Both the position numbers and the translations under genes were made by a program. The notes under the pieces are model-generated. The model worked only from the letters and a program-made list of their open reading frames with translations. It ran no database searches and was not told the origin of the DNA. Shown piece by piece: positions 1 through 5,748 of a stretch of DNA of 9,071 nt. Where the stretch lies: IMG/VR virus record IMGVR_UViG_2654587570_000008, one strand, 5' to 3'. Origin of the DNA: a virus. Its lineage: Duplodnaviria; Heunggongvirae; Uroviricota; Caudoviricetes. Position 1 is the stretch's first letter, and each line of letters begins with the position of its first letter.

Positions 1-888
1 ATGCCACTGCTGGATAAGCTGCGTGAGCAGTACGGGGTCGGACCGGTATGCAGTGAACTGCATATTGCCCCGTCAACGTATTACCACTGTCAGCAACAGC
101 GACATCATCCTGATAAACGCAGTGCCCGTGCTCAGCGCGATGACTGGCTGAAGAGAGAGATACAGCGCGTATACGATGAAAATCATCAGGTGTACGGTGT
201 GCGTAAAGTCTGGCGCCAGTTGTTACGCGAAGGTATCAGGGTGGCCAGATGTACAGTGGCGCGCCTCATGGCGGTTATGGGACTTGCCGGTGTTCTCCGG
301 GGTAAAAAGGTCCGTACTACCGTCAGCCGGAAAGCCGTTTCCGCATGCGACCGCGTAAACCGTCAGTTCGTGGCAGAACGTCCAGACCAGTTGTGGGTGG
401 CTGATTTTACCTGGGTAAGCACATGGCAGGGCTTCGTTTATGTGGCGTTCATCATTGATGTGTTCGCCGGATACATCGTGGGATGGCAGGTCTCATCATC
501 CATGGAAACAACATTCGTGCTGGATGCACTGGAGCAGGCGTTGTGGGCCCGTCGGCCGTCCGGCACAATCCATCACAGTGATAAAGGTTCTCAGTATGTA
601 TCGCTGGCCTACACGCAGCGGCTTAAGGAAGCCGGATTACTGGCATCAACAGGGAGTACTGGCGACTCGTATGACAACGCGATGGCGGAGAGCATCAATG
701 GTCTTTACAAAGCGGAGGTAATACACCGTAAGAGCTGGAAAAACCGTGCAGAAGTGGAACTGGCCACACTCACGTGGGTGGACTGGTATAACAATCGACG
801 ATTGCTGGAAAGGCTGGGCCATACTCCCCCGGCAGAAGCAGAAAAAGCTTATTATGCTTCCATCGGAAACGATGATCTGGCAGCCTGA
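1..888 (+). CDS. IS3-family transposase OrfB (DDE catalytic subunit)
   Basis: 295-aa ORF running from the window edge. The translation shows the IS3-family integrase-core pattern: D in WVADFTW, D in HHSDKGSQY, E in YDNAMAESINGLYK with K seven residues later. orfA and the frameshift site would lie upstream of position 1. Exact IS name not determinable by eye. Confidence 0.85.
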   Translation: MPLLDKLREQYGVGPVCSELHIAPSTYYHCQQQRHHPDKRSARAQRDDWLKREIQRVYDENHQVYGVRKVWRQLLREGIRVARCTVARLMAVMGLAGVLRGKKVRTTVSRKAVSACDRVNRQFVAERPDQLWVADFTWVSTWQGFVYVAFIIDVFAGYIVGWQVSSSMETTFVLDALEQALWARRPSGTIHHSDKGSQYVSLAYTQRLKEAGLLASTGSTGDSYDNAMAESINGLYKAEVIHRKSWKNRAEVELATLTWVDWYNNRRLLERLGHTPPAEAEKAYYASIGNDDLAA

Positions 889-893
889 GTTCA
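1..893 (+). mobile_element. 3' portion of an IS3-family insertion sequence; right terminus is approximate
   Basis: Contains orfB. IS3-family elements end within a few tens of bp of the orfB stop, usually in ...CA; the first ...TTCA after the stop is at 890-893. The true end could be up to about 60 bp further right, and no partner inverted repeat is available in the window. Confidence 0.55.
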
Positions 894-1312
894 CAGATAA
901 AACACTCTCCAGGAAACCCGGGGCGGTTCAGGCCGCCGGTCGTTATATTCGTTCGCATGAAGCCGTTCAGCACATCAGCATCCGCGACCGGCTGAATGAT
1001 TTTATGCAGCAGCACGGCACAGTACTGGCGGCCGCACTGGCACCGGAGCTGATGGGCTACAGTGAGCTGACGGCCATTGCCCGAAACTGTGCCATACAGC
1101 GTGCCACAGATGCCCTGCGTGAAGCCCTCCTGTCCTGGCTTGCGAAGGGTGAAAAAATTAATTATTCCGCACAGGATAGCGACATTTTAACGGCCATTGG
1201 ATTCAGACCTGACGCGGCTTCGGTGGATGACAGCCGTGAAAAATTCACCCCTGCGCAGAACATGATTTTTTCGCGTAAAAGTGCGCAACTGGCATCACGT
1301 CAGTCTGTGTAA
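894..1312 (+). pseudogene. 5'-truncated remnant of an unknown protein-coding gene, apparently interrupted by the IS3-family element
   Basis: The frame is open from 746 to the TAA at 1310-1312, but its first ~140 nt overlap orfB inside the IS in a different frame. No ATG with a Shine-Dalgarno follows the IS end. Composition is host-like (about 50% G+C by eye). Product not recognised. Confidence 0.35.
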
Positions 1313-1342
1313 AATTCCCCGAAAATCCGCCCGTTTTTACTG

Positions 1343-1376
1343 AAAAAAGCCATGCATCGATAAGGTGCATGGCTTT
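1343..1376. terminator. Candidate bidirectional intrinsic terminator
   Basis: Perfect 9-bp stem AGCCATGCA (1348-1356) / TGCATGGCT (1366-1374) with a 9-nt loop. It is preceded by A6 (1343-1348), giving U6 after the hairpin on the minus strand, and followed by TTT on the plus strand. It lies 35 nt after the stop at 1312. Confidence 0.4.
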
Positions 1377-1403
1377 GCATGCGTTTCCCTGCCTCATTTT
1401 CTG

Positions 1404-1431
1404 CAGACCGCGCCATTCCCGGCGCGGTCTG
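1404..1431. other. Perfect 11-bp GC-rich stem-loop with no adjacent T-tract
   Basis: CAGACCGCGCC (1404-1414) / GGCGCGGTCTG (1421-1431) with loop ATTCCC, inside a GC-rich ORF-free spacer. Function unknown (RNA stabiliser or protein-binding palindrome). Confidence 0.3.
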
Positions 1432-1702
1432 AGCGTGTCAGTGCAACTGCATTAAAACCGCCCCGCAAAGCGGGCGGGCGAGGCGGGGAAAGCACTGCGC
1501 GCCCGGTTGGTGCTCGTTACTAATGTTTTTTGCGCCCGAGCACCGTCGGGAAGGGGCTGGGGGGGGATAGGGGAGGTGCCTGACGTCGCGCGGTAATGTT
1601 GGTAAGTGTGCCGCTGATGGCTTCTGAGGGGAGTGGTAAATAGCCGCCTTTCGACGGTGTAGTGGGGAGAGTATTGCTTACAAACGTAATGAAATTGTTT
1701 GA

Positions 1703-1757
1703 GTAGCTAGGCTACTGCATAGGATTATTTTGTTCTGTTAATATATCCGTTAATATA
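1703..1757 (+). promoter_or_regulatory. Putative promoter/operator region of the two-gene cassette
   Basis: AT-rich block 30-80 bp upstream of the start at 1786/1792. Contains the palindrome GTAGC-TAG-GCTAC (1703-1715), two copies of GTTAATATA (1737-1745, 1749-1757) and weak sigma70-like hexamers (TTGTTC 1730-1735, TAATAT 1751-1756). Spacing is suboptimal, so this is a region call, not a mapped promoter. Confidence 0.3.
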
Positions 1758-1785
1758 GATAGATTGATCCAATTGAGTTTAAGGA

Positions 1786-2175
1786 ATGAGTATGTTTCAG
1801 ATATCAGCTGGAGTGTTCTTTGATTTAGATAAAATAGAAAAACACGATGGCACATTTGTTTTTTATTCAAATGTTGATGTGTCTTTCTCGGTGGAAAACA
1901 CCTCCCCTCTTTTTAAAGCAAATAAAATAAGTCATGATGGTATAAACTGTTATGTGGTAAACTATACTCTCCTGACCGAAAAACCAGAACGAATTGAAGC
2001 TGGAGTCGTAGTTAGGGCTGGTGATGAGGATTATAGGCAACAATTTATTTTATTATGGGAATTCTATTTTGATTGTGTGGCTAGAGTAGAAAAAGAATCG
2101 GTTAAAAAATATGTGCATTATCAAATTTTAATAAACATCACTCAAAAATTGCGCTTGAAGTTGCCCCATATTTAG
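1786..2175 (+). CDS. Hypothetical protein, 129 aa (cassette gene A); start may be the ATG at 1792
   Basis: ORF with an AAGGA Shine-Dalgarno at 1781-1785, better spaced for the ATG at 1792. Strongly AT-rich codon usage. Its TAG stop (2173-2175) shares one base with the GTG start of the next ORF. No recognisable motif or transmembrane segment. Confidence 0.6.
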   Translation: MSMFQISAGVFFDLDKIEKHDGTFVFYSNVDVSFSVENTSPLFKANKISHDGINCYVVNYTLLTEKPERIEAGVVVRAGDEDYRQQFILLWEFYFDCVARVEKESVKKYVHYQILINITQKLRLKLPHI

Positions 2176-3494
2176 TGGAGATTAACCGAAGAGTTTCATT
2201 TGATGATGTCTCTGGGTTTTCTGCTTTTATTAAAGATGTAGTGAATCTAAATAGATCTGCCTTTAAATCTTTAATGGCAGCGTTAAAAATAATTAGTGAT
2301 TCAAAAGAATCATTGTCAACCAACTTTGACCTGACTTATTCCATGTTAGTCTATGCCTTGGAGTCTTTGTCTCAAAGAAATGATAACTATAAGTCTGATT
2401 GGGATGACTACGATCAAAAAACCAGAGGTGAATTAGAGTCTGTATTTGAGCATATGCCTGGTGAGGATGTTTGTAAAATTAAATCAATACTTATTGAAGG
2501 CAAACAATTCAGATTACAAAAAAGGTTCAAAGATTTTATACTGAAAAATCTTGAAGAAAATTATTTCAATGAAACAGAGAGATATCCAATCCGCTATAGC
2601 TTCCTTAGTAGAGCTTTAGATAATTTATACAAAATCAGGTCTTCTTTTGTCCATGAGCTTAAGCCACTTGATGCAATGATCTCGAAAGCCTACAATCCTG
2701 TTGGTGATTGTCTGGTTCTTTTTGGCGAACCTCACTTCAGTTACTCTGGATTGCTTCGACTTCTTCGCCATGTGATAATAAATTTTTGCCGTAAAAACTA
2801 CAGTCAAAAAAGAGAGTATGTTAATTGGGTGATGGAAACATCGGGTGTAATGGTTGCAGAGATATCTGCACAATATTGGCTCTGGAATGCAGACGGATTT
2901 ACAGCTAAAAGTATAGCGAAGTGGTTTAGTGAATACCTAAATATGTTAAATTTAGGCGAAGTCACTGATTTGCAGTCTATCATGGACAAAATTGAGATAA
3001 TCTATGACCAATCCAAAAAAGAATATAAAAATGGGTTGTTGTATTTTTATTTCTTATATAACTTAATGCATAATGGAAATAAGGGTGAATGGCTTGAGTT
3101 TGCGAACAAGCGAAGTTCTATACTTGTTTGTGATATATATTGGTATTCATGCTCTCCATATTTATATAAATCATTTACTAATGTTTCAAATGGTATTGCT
3201 GATATAAAAACATTGAGAAACTTTTTGTCTTGTTTTAACGAATATGATAAAAATAAATTTAAGCCAAATCGTTTAAATCTCCCTGCAATGACCGAAGTAA
3301 TTATGTTGGCTTGCGCAGCAAATTCATTCTTCAGAATTGGAATGTATCAAGACTATGTTTTAATGGGCAATAGAGCGATGAGAGAAATTGCTTCAGTAAA
3401 AGATGTATTTTATTATATAAAAGAACGATTAAGTAATTCACAACTTATTGAATTGGACGAGTGCTTGAGATTGTATAGAAAAAAGGGGGGCTAA
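2175..3494 (+). CDS. Hypothetical protein, 439 aa (cassette gene B); possible HEPN-like Rx4H motif, unverified
   Basis: Long uninterrupted ORF in AT-rich DNA. It starts with GTG overlapping the upstream stop (TAGTG) and its stop TAA (3492-3494) overlaps the integrase stop. Contains R-SSFV-H at residues 155-160 (nt 2637-2654). No Walker A motif or transmembrane helix seen. Confidence 0.65.
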   Translation: MEINRRVSFDDVSGFSAFIKDVVNLNRSAFKSLMAALKIISDSKESLSTNFDLTYSMLVYALESLSQRNDNYKSDWDDYDQKTRGELESVFEHMPGEDVCKIKSILIEGKQFRLQKRFKDFILKNLEENYFNETERYPIRYSFLSRALDNLYKIRSSFVHELKPLDAMISKAYNPVGDCLVLFGEPHFSYSGLLRLLRHVIINFCRKNYSQKREYVNWVMETSGVMVAEISAQYWLWNADGFTAKSIAKWFSEYLNMLNLGEVTDLQSIMDKIEIIYDQSKKEYKNGLLYFYFLYNLMHNGNKGEWLEFANKRSSILVCDIYWYSCSPYLYKSFTNVSNGIADIKTLRNFLSCFNEYDKNKFKPNRLNLPAMTEVIMLACAANSFFRIGMYQDYVLMGNRAMREIASVKDVFYYIKERLSNSQLIELDECLRLYRKKGG

Positions 3495-3510
3495 CCCCTT
3501 TTATTTTTAA
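3483..3510. terminator. Candidate bidirectional terminator at the convergent gene ends
   Basis: Short GC stem GGGG (3487-3490) / CCCC (3495-3498) with loop CTAA, flanked by AAAA upstream and TTTTATTTTT downstream, so a U-tract follows the hairpin on both strands. The stem is short, so strength is doubtful. Confidence 0.35.
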
Positions 3511-4687
3511 CGTATTCACCCCACCAATCCATCAATTCAATTCGCTGCACGAGATAAGTAGAACGATTGTATGCTTTTCTAACTTCATTTTTATCACTGT
3601 GGGCTAAGGCAGACTCGATAACATCAGGATTTAATCCAGCTTCATTCATGGCTGTACTTGCTATTGAACGTAATCCATGGGCAACTAATTTTCCGCCAAA
3701 ACCAATACGTTTTAAAGCTGCATTTGCAGTCTGACTGTTCATTGGTTTCTTTGGGTCATTCCGACTCGGAAAAACATATTCACGATGAGCACTAATAGGC
3801 TTCATCACATTAAGAATCTCTAATGCCTGAGATGATAGAGGAATTATGTGTTCCCGTTTAGCCTTCATCCGTTCGGCAGGAATCGTCCAGAGCTTTGCAT
3901 GAAGATCGATTTCTTCCCACCGAGTACTGGAGGCTTCAGAAGGGCGCACAAGAGTCAGGAGTTGCCATTCAATTAGACAGCGAGTCGGGATAGACAGATT
4001 TGACATGACTAAAGAACGCATCAGCTTTGGTAATTCTTCAGGTCGAAGCGTCGGCATGTTTTGTTTTTTTGGCTTTTCGAAGGCCATGCCAACACCTGAT
4101 GCTGGGTTTGCATCAATCAAGCCAGTGTTAACCGCATAAATCATTATTTCGTTAATGCGTTGCACCAGACGACGTACAGTCTCTAATGCCCCACGAGCTT
4201 TGACTGGCTCAAGTGCTTCGACCAATGTTCTAGCTTTGATCTGCTGAACGGGCATCTCACCAACGGCGGGGAATACATCTTTTTCCAATGAGCGCCAAAT
4301 ATCTTTTGCATAATCAGGGGTAACACTTTTGCTTTTGAGCTGAAACCAATTAGCGGCGACCGTCGAGAAAATACTGTCCTGTGCGATTTGCTGCTGTTCC
4401 TCTGCAATTTCAGCTTGAATTTGCGGGTCAATTCCGTTGGCTAACAAGGAAAGGTAATCCGCTCTTAAGCGTCGGGCGTCAGCAAGTGAAAGGGCTGGGA
4501 AGGCTCCTAGCCCCATCATTGTCCGTTGCTTTGTTGCCGGACGTTGATAACGGAAACGCCATAACTTCTTACCGTTCGTTTTAACGAGTAGAAAAAGACC
4601 ATCGCCATCATGCAACGTTAGATCCTTTTCTAACGCTTTAGCGCGCAGTACTTCTGTGTTGGTCAGGGGGCGTGTCGTTCTTGCCAA
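3491..4687 (-). CDS. intA: P4-type (IntA-like) tyrosine integrase, site-specific recombinase
   Basis: 398-aa ORF. The N-terminus MARTTRPLT...DGDGLFLLV...KLWRFRY is typical of P4-family integrases, and the C-terminal catalytic region carries AHGLRSIAST (H-x-x-R) and a terminal Tyr in NRSTYL. It sits directly downstream of a tmRNA 3'-end att core, as intA does next to ssrA in E. coli K-12 CP4-57. Start codon is TTG (4685-4687) with an AAGGAG Shine-Dalgarno 8 nt upstream. Confidence 0.9.
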   Translation of the reverse strand: MARTTRPLTNTEVLRAKALEKDLTLHDGDGLFLLVKTNGKKLWRFRYQRPATKQRTMMGLGAFPALSLADARRLRADYLSLLANGIDPQIQAEIAEEQQQIAQDSIFSTVAANWFQLKSKSVTPDYAKDIWRSLEKDVFPAVGEMPVQQIKARTLVEALEPVKARGALETVRRLVQRINEIMIYAVNTGLIDANPASGVGMAFEKPKKQNMPTLRPEELPKLMRSLVMSNLSIPTRCLIEWQLLTLVRPSEASSTRWEEIDLHAKLWTIPAERMKAKREHIIPLSSQALEILNVMKPISAHREYVFPSRNDPKKPMNSQTANAALKRIGFGGKLVAHGLRSIASTAMNEAGLNPDVIESALAHSDKNEVRKAYNRSTYLVQRIELMDWWGEYVKNKRG

Positions 4688-4706
4688 TTTGGCCGCTCCT
4701 TCATGA

Positions 4707-4760
4707 ATTGGTATACGCGTTTAGGTATACATCCTACCGTATACCTAAACGTATACCAAT
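4707..4760 (-). promoter_or_regulatory. Long near-perfect inverted repeat upstream of the integrase start (candidate operator or integrase-regulatory site)
   Basis: Left arm ATTGGTATACGCGTTTAGGTATAC (4707-4730) and right arm GTATACCTAAACGTATACCAAT (4739-4760) are reverse complements apart from a 2-nt indel. They carry four GTATAC palindromic cores and lie about 20 bp upstream of the integrase Shine-Dalgarno. Confidence 0.4.
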
Positions 4761-4802
4761 AATCACTGGATTTAGCTGGATATCCTCGGACAACGGTAGA
4801 CA

Positions 4803-4838
4803 CAAAAAAGCCCGCAGAGCTTGTGCTATGCGGGCTTT
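4803..4838 (-). terminator. Intrinsic terminator on the minus strand, downstream of the tmRNA-end remnant
   Basis: Perfect 8-bp stem AGCCCGCA (4809-4816) / TGCGGGCT (4829-4836) with a 12-nt loop. On the minus strand the hairpin is followed by U6 (complement of A 4804-4809). Confidence 0.5.
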
Positions 4839-4871
4839 CAGGATTTCTCCGGACGTATCCGGAAGAGCAAG

Positions 4872-4907
4872 TGGTGGAGCTGGCGGGAGTTGAACCCGTG
4901 TCTGAAA
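4872..4907 (-). other. Attachment-site remnant: 3'-terminal ~36 nt of a tmRNA (ssrA) gene, without the gene body
   Basis: The reverse complement of 4872-4898 reads CGGGTTCAACTCCCGCCAGCTCCACCA, the T-arm/acceptor 3' end of E. coli tmRNA as I recall it. Similarity continues with 2 mismatches to about 4907 and is then lost in AT-rich DNA, so this is a junction core, not an intact gene. Confidence 0.7.
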
Positions 4908-4936
4908 AATATTAACCTGTTGTTTTAATTATATAT

Positions 4937-5404
4937 TTATCTGAACATGGCGTTTGCGGCGCTTTTGCGTATCTTCTCTAGACCTTTTGTAGTCCATTTC
5001 TCTGGTACAGGTGTAAACCGTAGTGCAAAATCTGCCTCCATATTATCACCACTGAAACGTGCCACTCCACGTTCCAATTTTGTTTGCCAAGTGACTTTTT
5101 TAGTTTTACCCTCTATATCTTGATATTCAATAATTAATTTTGGACCAGTGAATGATGAAGAACCGACTAATTTAAGTCTATGTGAAAGATATGCTATATT
5201 CAATAGAATATCAATTGCCGCGGTTGGTACAAAAATGTTTTTTGACTTCTTATCTATACTATATGGTAACGAAAAATCAATATCGTAAGGTGTCGATAAA
5301 GTATTGTACATATATACTTTTCTTTCTTTTATTATTTTGAATATTCCATACTGGGAGTCGGTTGTAAAAGATTTATCTTCTTTTTTGAATTTTTTCGAAA
5401 ACAA
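4937..5404 (-). CDS. Hypothetical protein, 155 aa; probably the C-terminal part of a frameshifted membrane-anchored protein gene
   Basis: AT-rich ORF with no ATG (first start candidate is TTG at 5402-5404), lying 14 nt downstream of the preceding ORF in the -1 frame. No recognised domain. Confidence 0.45.
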   Translation of the reverse strand: MFSKKFKKEDKSFTTDSQYGIFKIIKERKVYMYNTLSTPYDIDFSLPYSIDKKSKNIFVPTAAIDILLNIAYLSHRLKLVGSSSFTGPKLIIEYQDIEGKTKKVTWQTKLERGVARFSGDNMEADFALRFTPVPEKWTTKGLEKIRKSAANAMFR

Positions 5405-5418
5405 CTCTAAATATAGAT

Positions 5419-5715
5419 TTATGTTTTTTTATAATTAAAATCCCAATGATATCTAAGTGAAATTGCCGCCCCCAATCCTATGTTTGAAAATTTTGTTTGT
5501 GGAAGCGTAGGGGCTTGTAAGATATCAACATGAAAACCGTTGAAATCGTTAACATTCATCTTGATATTTAAAGTGTCTATCACTAAATTGGGTTTATAAG
5601 AGAGCCTTCTTTGAAATATCGTTAACCATATTGCATATAATGCAGCAATTGCTGAAATGAAAGTACCAACTGAAGATATGTAGGTGATTAGTTTGTCGAA
5701 TGTAATTGTAATCAA
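5419..5715 (-). CDS. Hypothetical protein, 98 aa, with an N-terminal transmembrane helix; probably the N-terminal part of a frameshifted gene
   Basis: AT-rich ORF with a hydrophobic segment ITYISSVGTFISAIAALYAIWLTIF near the N-terminus. TTG start (5713-5715) preceded by GGGGA. Ends in TAA just after an A7 run on the coding strand (T7 at 5424-5430 on plus). Confidence 0.5.
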   Translation of the reverse strand: MITITFDKLITYISSVGTFISAIAALYAIWLTIFQRRLSYKPNLVIDTLNIKMNVNDFNGFHVDILQAPTLPQTKFSNIGLGAAISLRYHWDFNYKKT

Positions 5716-5720
5716 CTTTA

Positions 5721-5748
5721 AATCCCCGATTTTAAAAATGCGGGGATT
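5721..5748 (-). promoter_or_regulatory. Stem-loop immediately downstream of int that includes the Shine-Dalgarno of the next gene
   Basis: Perfect 8-bp stem AATCCCCG (5721-5728) / CGGGGATT (5741-5748) with a 12-nt AT-rich loop. It lies between the int stop (5757) and the downstream ORF start (5715); the GGGGA Shine-Dalgarno is part of the stem. Confidence 0.3.

Follow-up and report, generated by a model that had tools for sequence, protein, structure and literature searches.

The 9,071 bp of DNA analyzed here (the window) are, to judge from the sequence, the junction of two elements that occupy ssrA, the tmRNA gene, in tandem: a P4-like satellite on the left and an e14-like prophage on the right, so that the interval is not one island. 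We are highly confident in the overall reading of this locus, which comprises the tandem ssrA elements, the insertion of an IS629-group element into the satellite gene psu, and the loss of about 12 kb by a deletion linked to IS1. All the components are of well-known kinds, and what they document is ordinary mobile-element decay, which is already known.

An exact-protein look-up identified the window as the complete draft contig JHTB01000077.1 of assembly GCA_001266275.1, from Escherichia coli, and locus L011 has the identical sequence. The contig starts within one multicopy insertion sequence (IS) and finishes within another; these are found at both of its edges because short-read draft contigs break at repeats. 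Relatives with both junctions were located by an exact-protein look-up of a 127-aa ORF that is specific to a frameshift in the satellite cargo gene, described below. The full 9,071 bp are matched at 99.99% identity by locus L005, a 5.3-Mb contig of GCA_040813075.1, and at 99.93% by locus L006, the complete chromosome CP164306.1. Neither exact IS junction was present in 5,426 RefSeq complete E. coli genomes, and the IS-bearing lineage is known only from GenBank and Logan assemblies. Because the window stops inside both IS, the target-site duplication and the 5′ part of psu are visible only in the near-identical assemblies; we infer that the genome from which the window derives would have the same off-window junctions as L005 and L006, each of which is at least 99.9% identical to it. 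The window is a short draft contig with multicopy repeats at its ends, and its junctions could in theory come from the assembly, either as a chimeric contig or through repeat ends added by the assembler. We consider this highly improbable, since identical junctions occur, base for base, in the 5.3-Mb contig and in the complete chromosome, and since the draft assemblies L012–L014 are interrupted at the same points as the window contig. These shared breakpoints suggest a single lineage represented by several sequenced isolates.

Positions 1–930 (+ strand) belong to a 1,310-bp element of the IS629/IS1203 group (IS3 family), of which they are the right-hand 930 bp, as determined from protein domains, Rfam model RF01497 and alignment. 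They include orfB (1–888, + strand), whose product contains the Pfam domains HTH_21, rve, rve_3 and rve_2, and the IS3-family frameshift pseudoknot ALIL (RF01497, 60.5 bits) in bases 1–72, with its 5′ end lost at the window edge; orfA and the slippery site lie outside of the window. IS3-family transposases are made from orfA and orfB by a programmed -1 frameshift, and both L005 and L006 have a gene call for an OrfAB product of 404 aa. The ends of the IS were defined on an independent copy, the IS1203 annotated in the sid gene of strain M25631H (L001), which when compared with the intact sid of strain NS-NP030 shows the ends TGAACC...GGTTCA and a 3-bp duplication, GAG. The alignment of the window to this copy extends through 930/931, and the right terminal inverted repeat occupies approximately positions 906–930, ending ...GGGGCGGTTCA, with last bases ...GGTTCA, which sets the end of the IS at 930. 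The first-pass annotation had placed this end at 893/894, just past the transposase stop (888/893) and hence 36–37 bp too early, and the DNA not belonging to IS is therefore 931–8975 and not the cargo span of 894–8975 that it gave. In L005, the whole element comprises 1,310 bp, with TGAACCGCCCCGGGAATCCTGGAGAC as its left end and the reverse complement of TGAACCGCCCCGGGTTTCCTGGAGAG as its right end. Its assignment to the IS3 family rests on an rve-core DDE transposase, TG...CA ends, a length of 1,310 bp, as against about 1.2–1.5 kb for the family, and a 3-bp target duplication (seen in L005); it shares all of these with the isoforms IS629, IS1203 and IS3411, together with imperfect inverted repeats of around 25 bp, the orfA/orfB layout and the frameshift pseudoknot. 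Comparison of bases 1–930 with the annotated IS1203 copy gives an identity of only 94.7%, and the identity rises to 99.2% with other E. coli copies, the nearest of which are tagged merely as 'IS3 family' in RefSeq. Subtypes of IS629 differ by 4–5% and generate target duplications of 3–4 bp (PMC3271280), and by its sequence the window IS is a subtype inside this known spread of isoforms and no new element. Likewise, its location agrees with the preference of IS629 from E. coli O157:H7 for prophage-like DNA, 62% of the copies in four O157:H7 strains lying within prophages or prophage-like elements (PMC3271280).

The gene interrupted by this element is psu, encoding the P4 polarity suppression protein, of which codons 64–190 of 190 are kept at positions 929–1312 (+ strand). 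The translation of 932–1312 matches the Pfam family Psu (3e-61, profile positions 61–181 of 182), and the remnant aligns with positions 66–190 of the 190 of phrog_6366; at the nucleotide level, window positions 931–1476 correspond, with 98.4% identity, to nt 11079–11624 of the P4 genome (X51522), which are the final 546 nt of linear P4. In IS-free genomes psu encodes 190 aa, and the product of the intact allele is around 98% identical to P4 Psu (PDB 3RX6). The proposal that an IS3-family element had interrupted a pre-existing gene is thus borne out, as is the observation on which it was founded, that the frame ending at 1312 continues back into the IS: this frame is open leftward to position 746 and contains an ATG at 854, which explains the public gene call at 854–1312 on the contig, with its Psu match. 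Neither an independent start nor homologues of the same length were found for the ORF fragment, and an independent short Psu-like gene was accordingly ruled out. The remnant lacks its own start codon and promoter, and a scan of positions 700–1850 for promoters and terminators returned nothing beyond the shuffled expectation, including no + strand promoter-like site above chance for the hybrid IS-psu ORF. This putative hybrid ORF (854–1312) could in principle be translated. The 126-aa "gene" at 931–1312 is better annotated as a psu pseudogene fragment.

The structure of the junctions in the relatives argues for a simple event. In L005 they read ...gtgaatcaGGC|TGAACC...GGTTCA|GGCcgccgg, as compared to ...aatcaggccgcc... 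in intact psu: nt 1–194 of psu adjoin the left end of the 1,310-bp IS and GGC flanks both ends, the right copy of this 3-bp target-site duplication being at positions 931–933 of the window (+ strand) and the left copy off-window. Additionally, the remainder of the satellite in L006 is collinear with an IS-free allele, with 99.1% identity. The continuity of psu across the IS, the GGC duplication and the collinearity in L006 together point to a clean transposition, in which an intact-looking IS629/IS1203-group element of 1,310 bp moved into psu, duplicating GGC. The far side of the IS is unseen in the window, which ends inside of it, and the satellite in L005 has also suffered an insertion of the IS21 family and the loss, linked to IS66, of its primase region; it could be argued that a deletion or rearrangement mediated by the IS produced the IS3-type junction and took away the left part of the satellite along with its boundary. 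This is very unlikely, however, because psu nt 1–194 abut the left end of the IS with a perfect 3-bp duplication in both long assemblies, because L006 retains the rest of the satellite, and because the additional damage in L005 is elsewhere and due to other IS elements. Specifically, positions 1–6070 of L005 (GCA_040813075.1) hold the same satellite with the IS21-family insertion and with IS66 in place of the primase (alpha) region, and four IS families are found there inside 20 kb; neither of these two changes occurs in CP164306.1 (L006).

Clean insertion in psu codon 64/65 parts codons 1–63 and the start from codons 64–190, and Psu should consequently be inactivated. Psu contacts Rho through residues R43, D49 and E56 and through helix alpha7 (PMC11718236). 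We infer that Psu function has been lost in this satellite.

Positions 931–4871 are the int-proximal half of the P4-like satellite, containing the truncated psu, the cohesive end, a cargo gene of low GC content and a P4-type integrase gene. The 19-mer GGCGAGGCGGGGAAAGCAC at 1477–1495 (+ strand), which we take to be the P2/P4 cohesive end (cos), is an exact single match, with none in 200 shuffles, and directly follows the final base of the match to the linear P4 genome. The integrase (398 aa; 3491–4687, - strand) is a tyrosine recombinase with domains Arm-DNA-bind_3, Phage_int_M and Phage_integrase (NCBIfam PRK09692, 8e-178). Besides the truncated psu, cos and int of the window, the flanks of the locus in L006 and in the comparison locus L002 contain delta (Ogr_Delta), sid, AlpA and a primase-helicase gene, in agreement with a P4-like element. 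The order psu, cos, variable cargo, int and att is that of P4-like satellites, with which the element also shares a Psu that is around 98% identical to that of P4, the exact cos 19-mer and an already catalogued cargo gene. P4 itself integrates at leuX, whereas the satellite of the window is integrated at ssrA. It also differs from the satellites with a psu-int hotspot described by Rousset et al. 2022 and de Sousa and Rocha 2022 in that its psu is broken by an IS and its cargo gene is frameshifted.

The psu-int interval is the defence hotspot of P4 (PMC9122126), and in the window it contains a gene at 1792–3494 (+ strand), delimited by alignment to L002, with a GC content of around 33% and encoding 567 aa when intact. 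It corresponds to the candidate 'HEPN-TPR', cloned from E. coli ATCC 8739 in pFR83 (Rousset et al. Table S2B), which these authors place with the 'additional tested systems' and leave out of the validated ones. The protein has a weak match to the Cas13-ApeA HEPN model of PADLOC (7e-6) and contains RSSFVH, a candidate for the R-x4-6-H motif of HEPN domains; sequence searches of Pfam, NCBIfam, PHROGs and PDB returned no match for the 567-aa product. In the window, a change from A7 to A6 (tract 2104–2109) splits the gene into ORFs of 127 and 439 aa. The tract is A7 in all 19 of the complete RefSeq genomes that carry the gene, and A6 is present on at least three haplotypes, the haplotype nearest to the window (one SNP off) being A7; this distribution suggests recurrent slippage or reversion of the tract. 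Between cos and the cargo gene there is also a poly-G tract (approximately 1553–1565), whose length varies by up to three bases among near-identical loci; either true slippage upstream of the gene or noise from the assembly may explain this variation.

The satellite ends on the right at positions 4872–4907 (- strand), where the final 36 nt of ssrA are repeated with 34 of 36 positions identical, as established by reading of the sequence and alignment to the ssrA gene of L002. No complete gene for a tRNA or a tmRNA was detected in the window, either by a tRNA/tmRNA scan or with Rfam, and the ssrA 3′ fragment was recognized by eye and by alignment. The two differences from the functional gene are both G-to-A changes. 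This 36-bp copy is the att junction common to the satellite, on its left, and to the e14-like prophage, on its right: in IS-free genomes without a second element the satellite integrase adjoins the full-length ssrA, and in strain C1 the e14-like prophage is complete, with the full ssrA at its far end. The first-pass annotation had described the whole locus as bracketed by two unrelated IS and had proposed that IS activity may have erased the island or prophage boundaries. Neither a bracketed unit nor erased boundaries are supported by these results, since the window contains parts of two separately integrated elements and its contig ends in repeats, and since the intact att copy derived from ssrA indicates that the boundary between satellite and prophage was not erased. 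Moreover, both IS are internal to their respective elements and not at the element edges, the outer ends of the two elements lying outside of the window.

The remaining sequence, 4908–8975, belongs to an e14-like prophage, of the kind that contains ymf genes, and is its attL-int-xis-early end. Next to attL, and between it and int, is a gene for a product of 259 aa belonging to phrog_7259 (2e-85), of unknown function (4937–5715, - strand, as aligned to strain C1), which is frameshifted by a change from T8 to T7 (tract 5424–5430). The product has a hydrophobic N-terminus. The gene is intact in L006, L012 and L014 and shifted in L005, L011 and L013, all from the same IS-bearing lineage. The A7 to A6 and T8 to T7 changes could be seen as recurrent slippage switches that turn candidate defence genes on and off, as opposed to one-off decay, but we regard this as unlikely. 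All on the - strand, there follow the genes for an integrase of 390 aa (5757–6929; Pfam Arm-DNA-bind_2 and Phage_integrase) and an excisionase (6890–7108; phrog_2917, 1.6e-45), two early genes identified by PHROG matches (phrog_1226, 7156–7371; phrog_583, 7368–7730) and a gene for a YfdR-like 5′-deoxynucleotidase (7721–8257; PHROG match and RefSeq annotation of relatives). Positions 8340–8660 are richer in GC and contain no convincing ORF; relatives have a frameshifted hypothetical gene annotated there, and in some of them yfdQ and yfdP are found between this region and yfdR, two genes that the window and strain C1 both lack. As with other e14-like prophages, the relatives contain immunity genes of the ymfK/ymfT/ymfL type, ymfQ/ymfR, pinE, tfaE and int-xis beside attL; the prophage of the window differs in residing in ssrA and in that its lineage lacks the region from the repressor through the 5′ end of terS.

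Similarity to the IS-free prophage ends at position 8975, and positions 8976–9071 (+ strand) are 96 bp from the left end of IS1, with its inverted repeat GGTGATGCTGCCAAC... and 13 codons of insA counted from the GTG start at 9031, in agreement with the earlier assignment of the right edge to IS1. The three parts of the earlier observation, namely the IS3-family element, the frame open back into it and this IS1, are all confirmed, and chance matches do not account for them. In L005 this IS1 is 768 bp long, with right end ...AAGTTGGAGTCATTACC, and has the Pfam domains Zn_ribbon_InsA, HTH_Tnp_IS1 and DDE_Tnp_IS1; IS1 copies of this length occur in the relatives of the window. Its insertion point cuts two convergent, overlapping prophage genes (8771–8975, both strands), which were defined from the translation of the IS-free allele in L004, PHROG matches and annotation. 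The phrog_3311 gene (+ strand, 81 aa) is cut after codon 68 and now takes its stop from IS1, at 8978–8980, while just the last 13 codons, at 8935–8975, are left of the phrog_3195 gene (- strand, 91 aa). In IS-free alleles the convergent overlap of these genes is of around 80 nt.

The sequences flanking the IS1 indicate a different history from that of the left element. Inspection of target duplications and IS ends in the relatives, which the first-pass annotation had put forward as a check, revealed GGC around the 1,310-bp IS, and an IS1 without duplication: its 9-bp flanks in L005 are unlike (GACTTTCTG vs. GAACCTGTT), instead of repeating the 8–9 bp of a target. The absence of a duplication fits a derivative of deletion or recombination and is no argument against the identity of the element as IS1. 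Both flanks are collinear with strain C1, although they are 12,058 bp apart there, and the right flank is inside terS; in 1,100 IS-free records this flank is internal to terS-terL. The block missing with respect to strain C1 runs from just before the ymfK-type repressor gene, through the replication, Q and lysis genes, to the first approximately 100 nt of terS. The size of about 12 kb is relative to strain C1, with which the right flank shares only 97.4% identity, and the length in the true ancestor may differ. One flank kept, no 8–9-bp duplication and the loss of a collinear block are the classical signature of an IS1 intramolecular deletion or of recombination between two copies. The lack of a target duplication and the absence of around 12 kb relative to strain C1 together indicate an IS1-linked deletion of this part of the prophage, which probably took place by one of these two routes, adjacent deletion by IS1 or recombination between two IS1 copies, which the sequence cannot separate. 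Canonical ends and the start of InsA are found in this 768-bp IS1, one flank is retained, about 12 kb is absent and there is no duplication, as is known for IS1 and the adjacent deletions associated with it, and the lineage of the window has no unusual feature in this respect. This loss should have left the prophage defective. Consequently, the remodelling and deletion by IS that had been proposed for the locus holds for the IS1 side, with no duplication and about 12 kb gone, whereas the IS3-type event was a clean insertion.

The two IS belong to different families, IS3 on the left and IS1 on the right, as had been noted before. A composite transposon needs two copies of one IS, or cross-reactive IS, around its cargo and cannot be formed from two IS of different families, and this structure was therefore rejected for the window. 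Both window edges are IS and the interval contains cargo of the defence type, which might suggest that the segment between them is a mobile or selected unit, with its cargo deliberately bracketed by IS. We give practically no credence to this possibility: the two IS differ in family, transposase and ends, many genomes have this interval, free of IS, at the same ssrA site of the chromosome, an att junction between two distinct elements lies inside it, and the IS are at the edges of the window owing to the ending of contigs in repeats. The preferred interpretation is thus that of two tandem elements at ssrA, each with its own IS-associated damage.

The significance of these results is small outside of annotation, where they illustrate that a short contig with IS at its two ends usually shows a signature of the assembly and not a biological bracket. 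For the lineage of the window, they imply that the satellite would have lost Psu and that the neighboring prophage would be a defective remnant without immunity, replication and lysis genes. For the candidate defence cargo, loss of function through an A-tract prone to slippage is predicted in several haplotypes, and this slippage may bear on the lack of phenotype of the cargo gene or on counter-selection against it.
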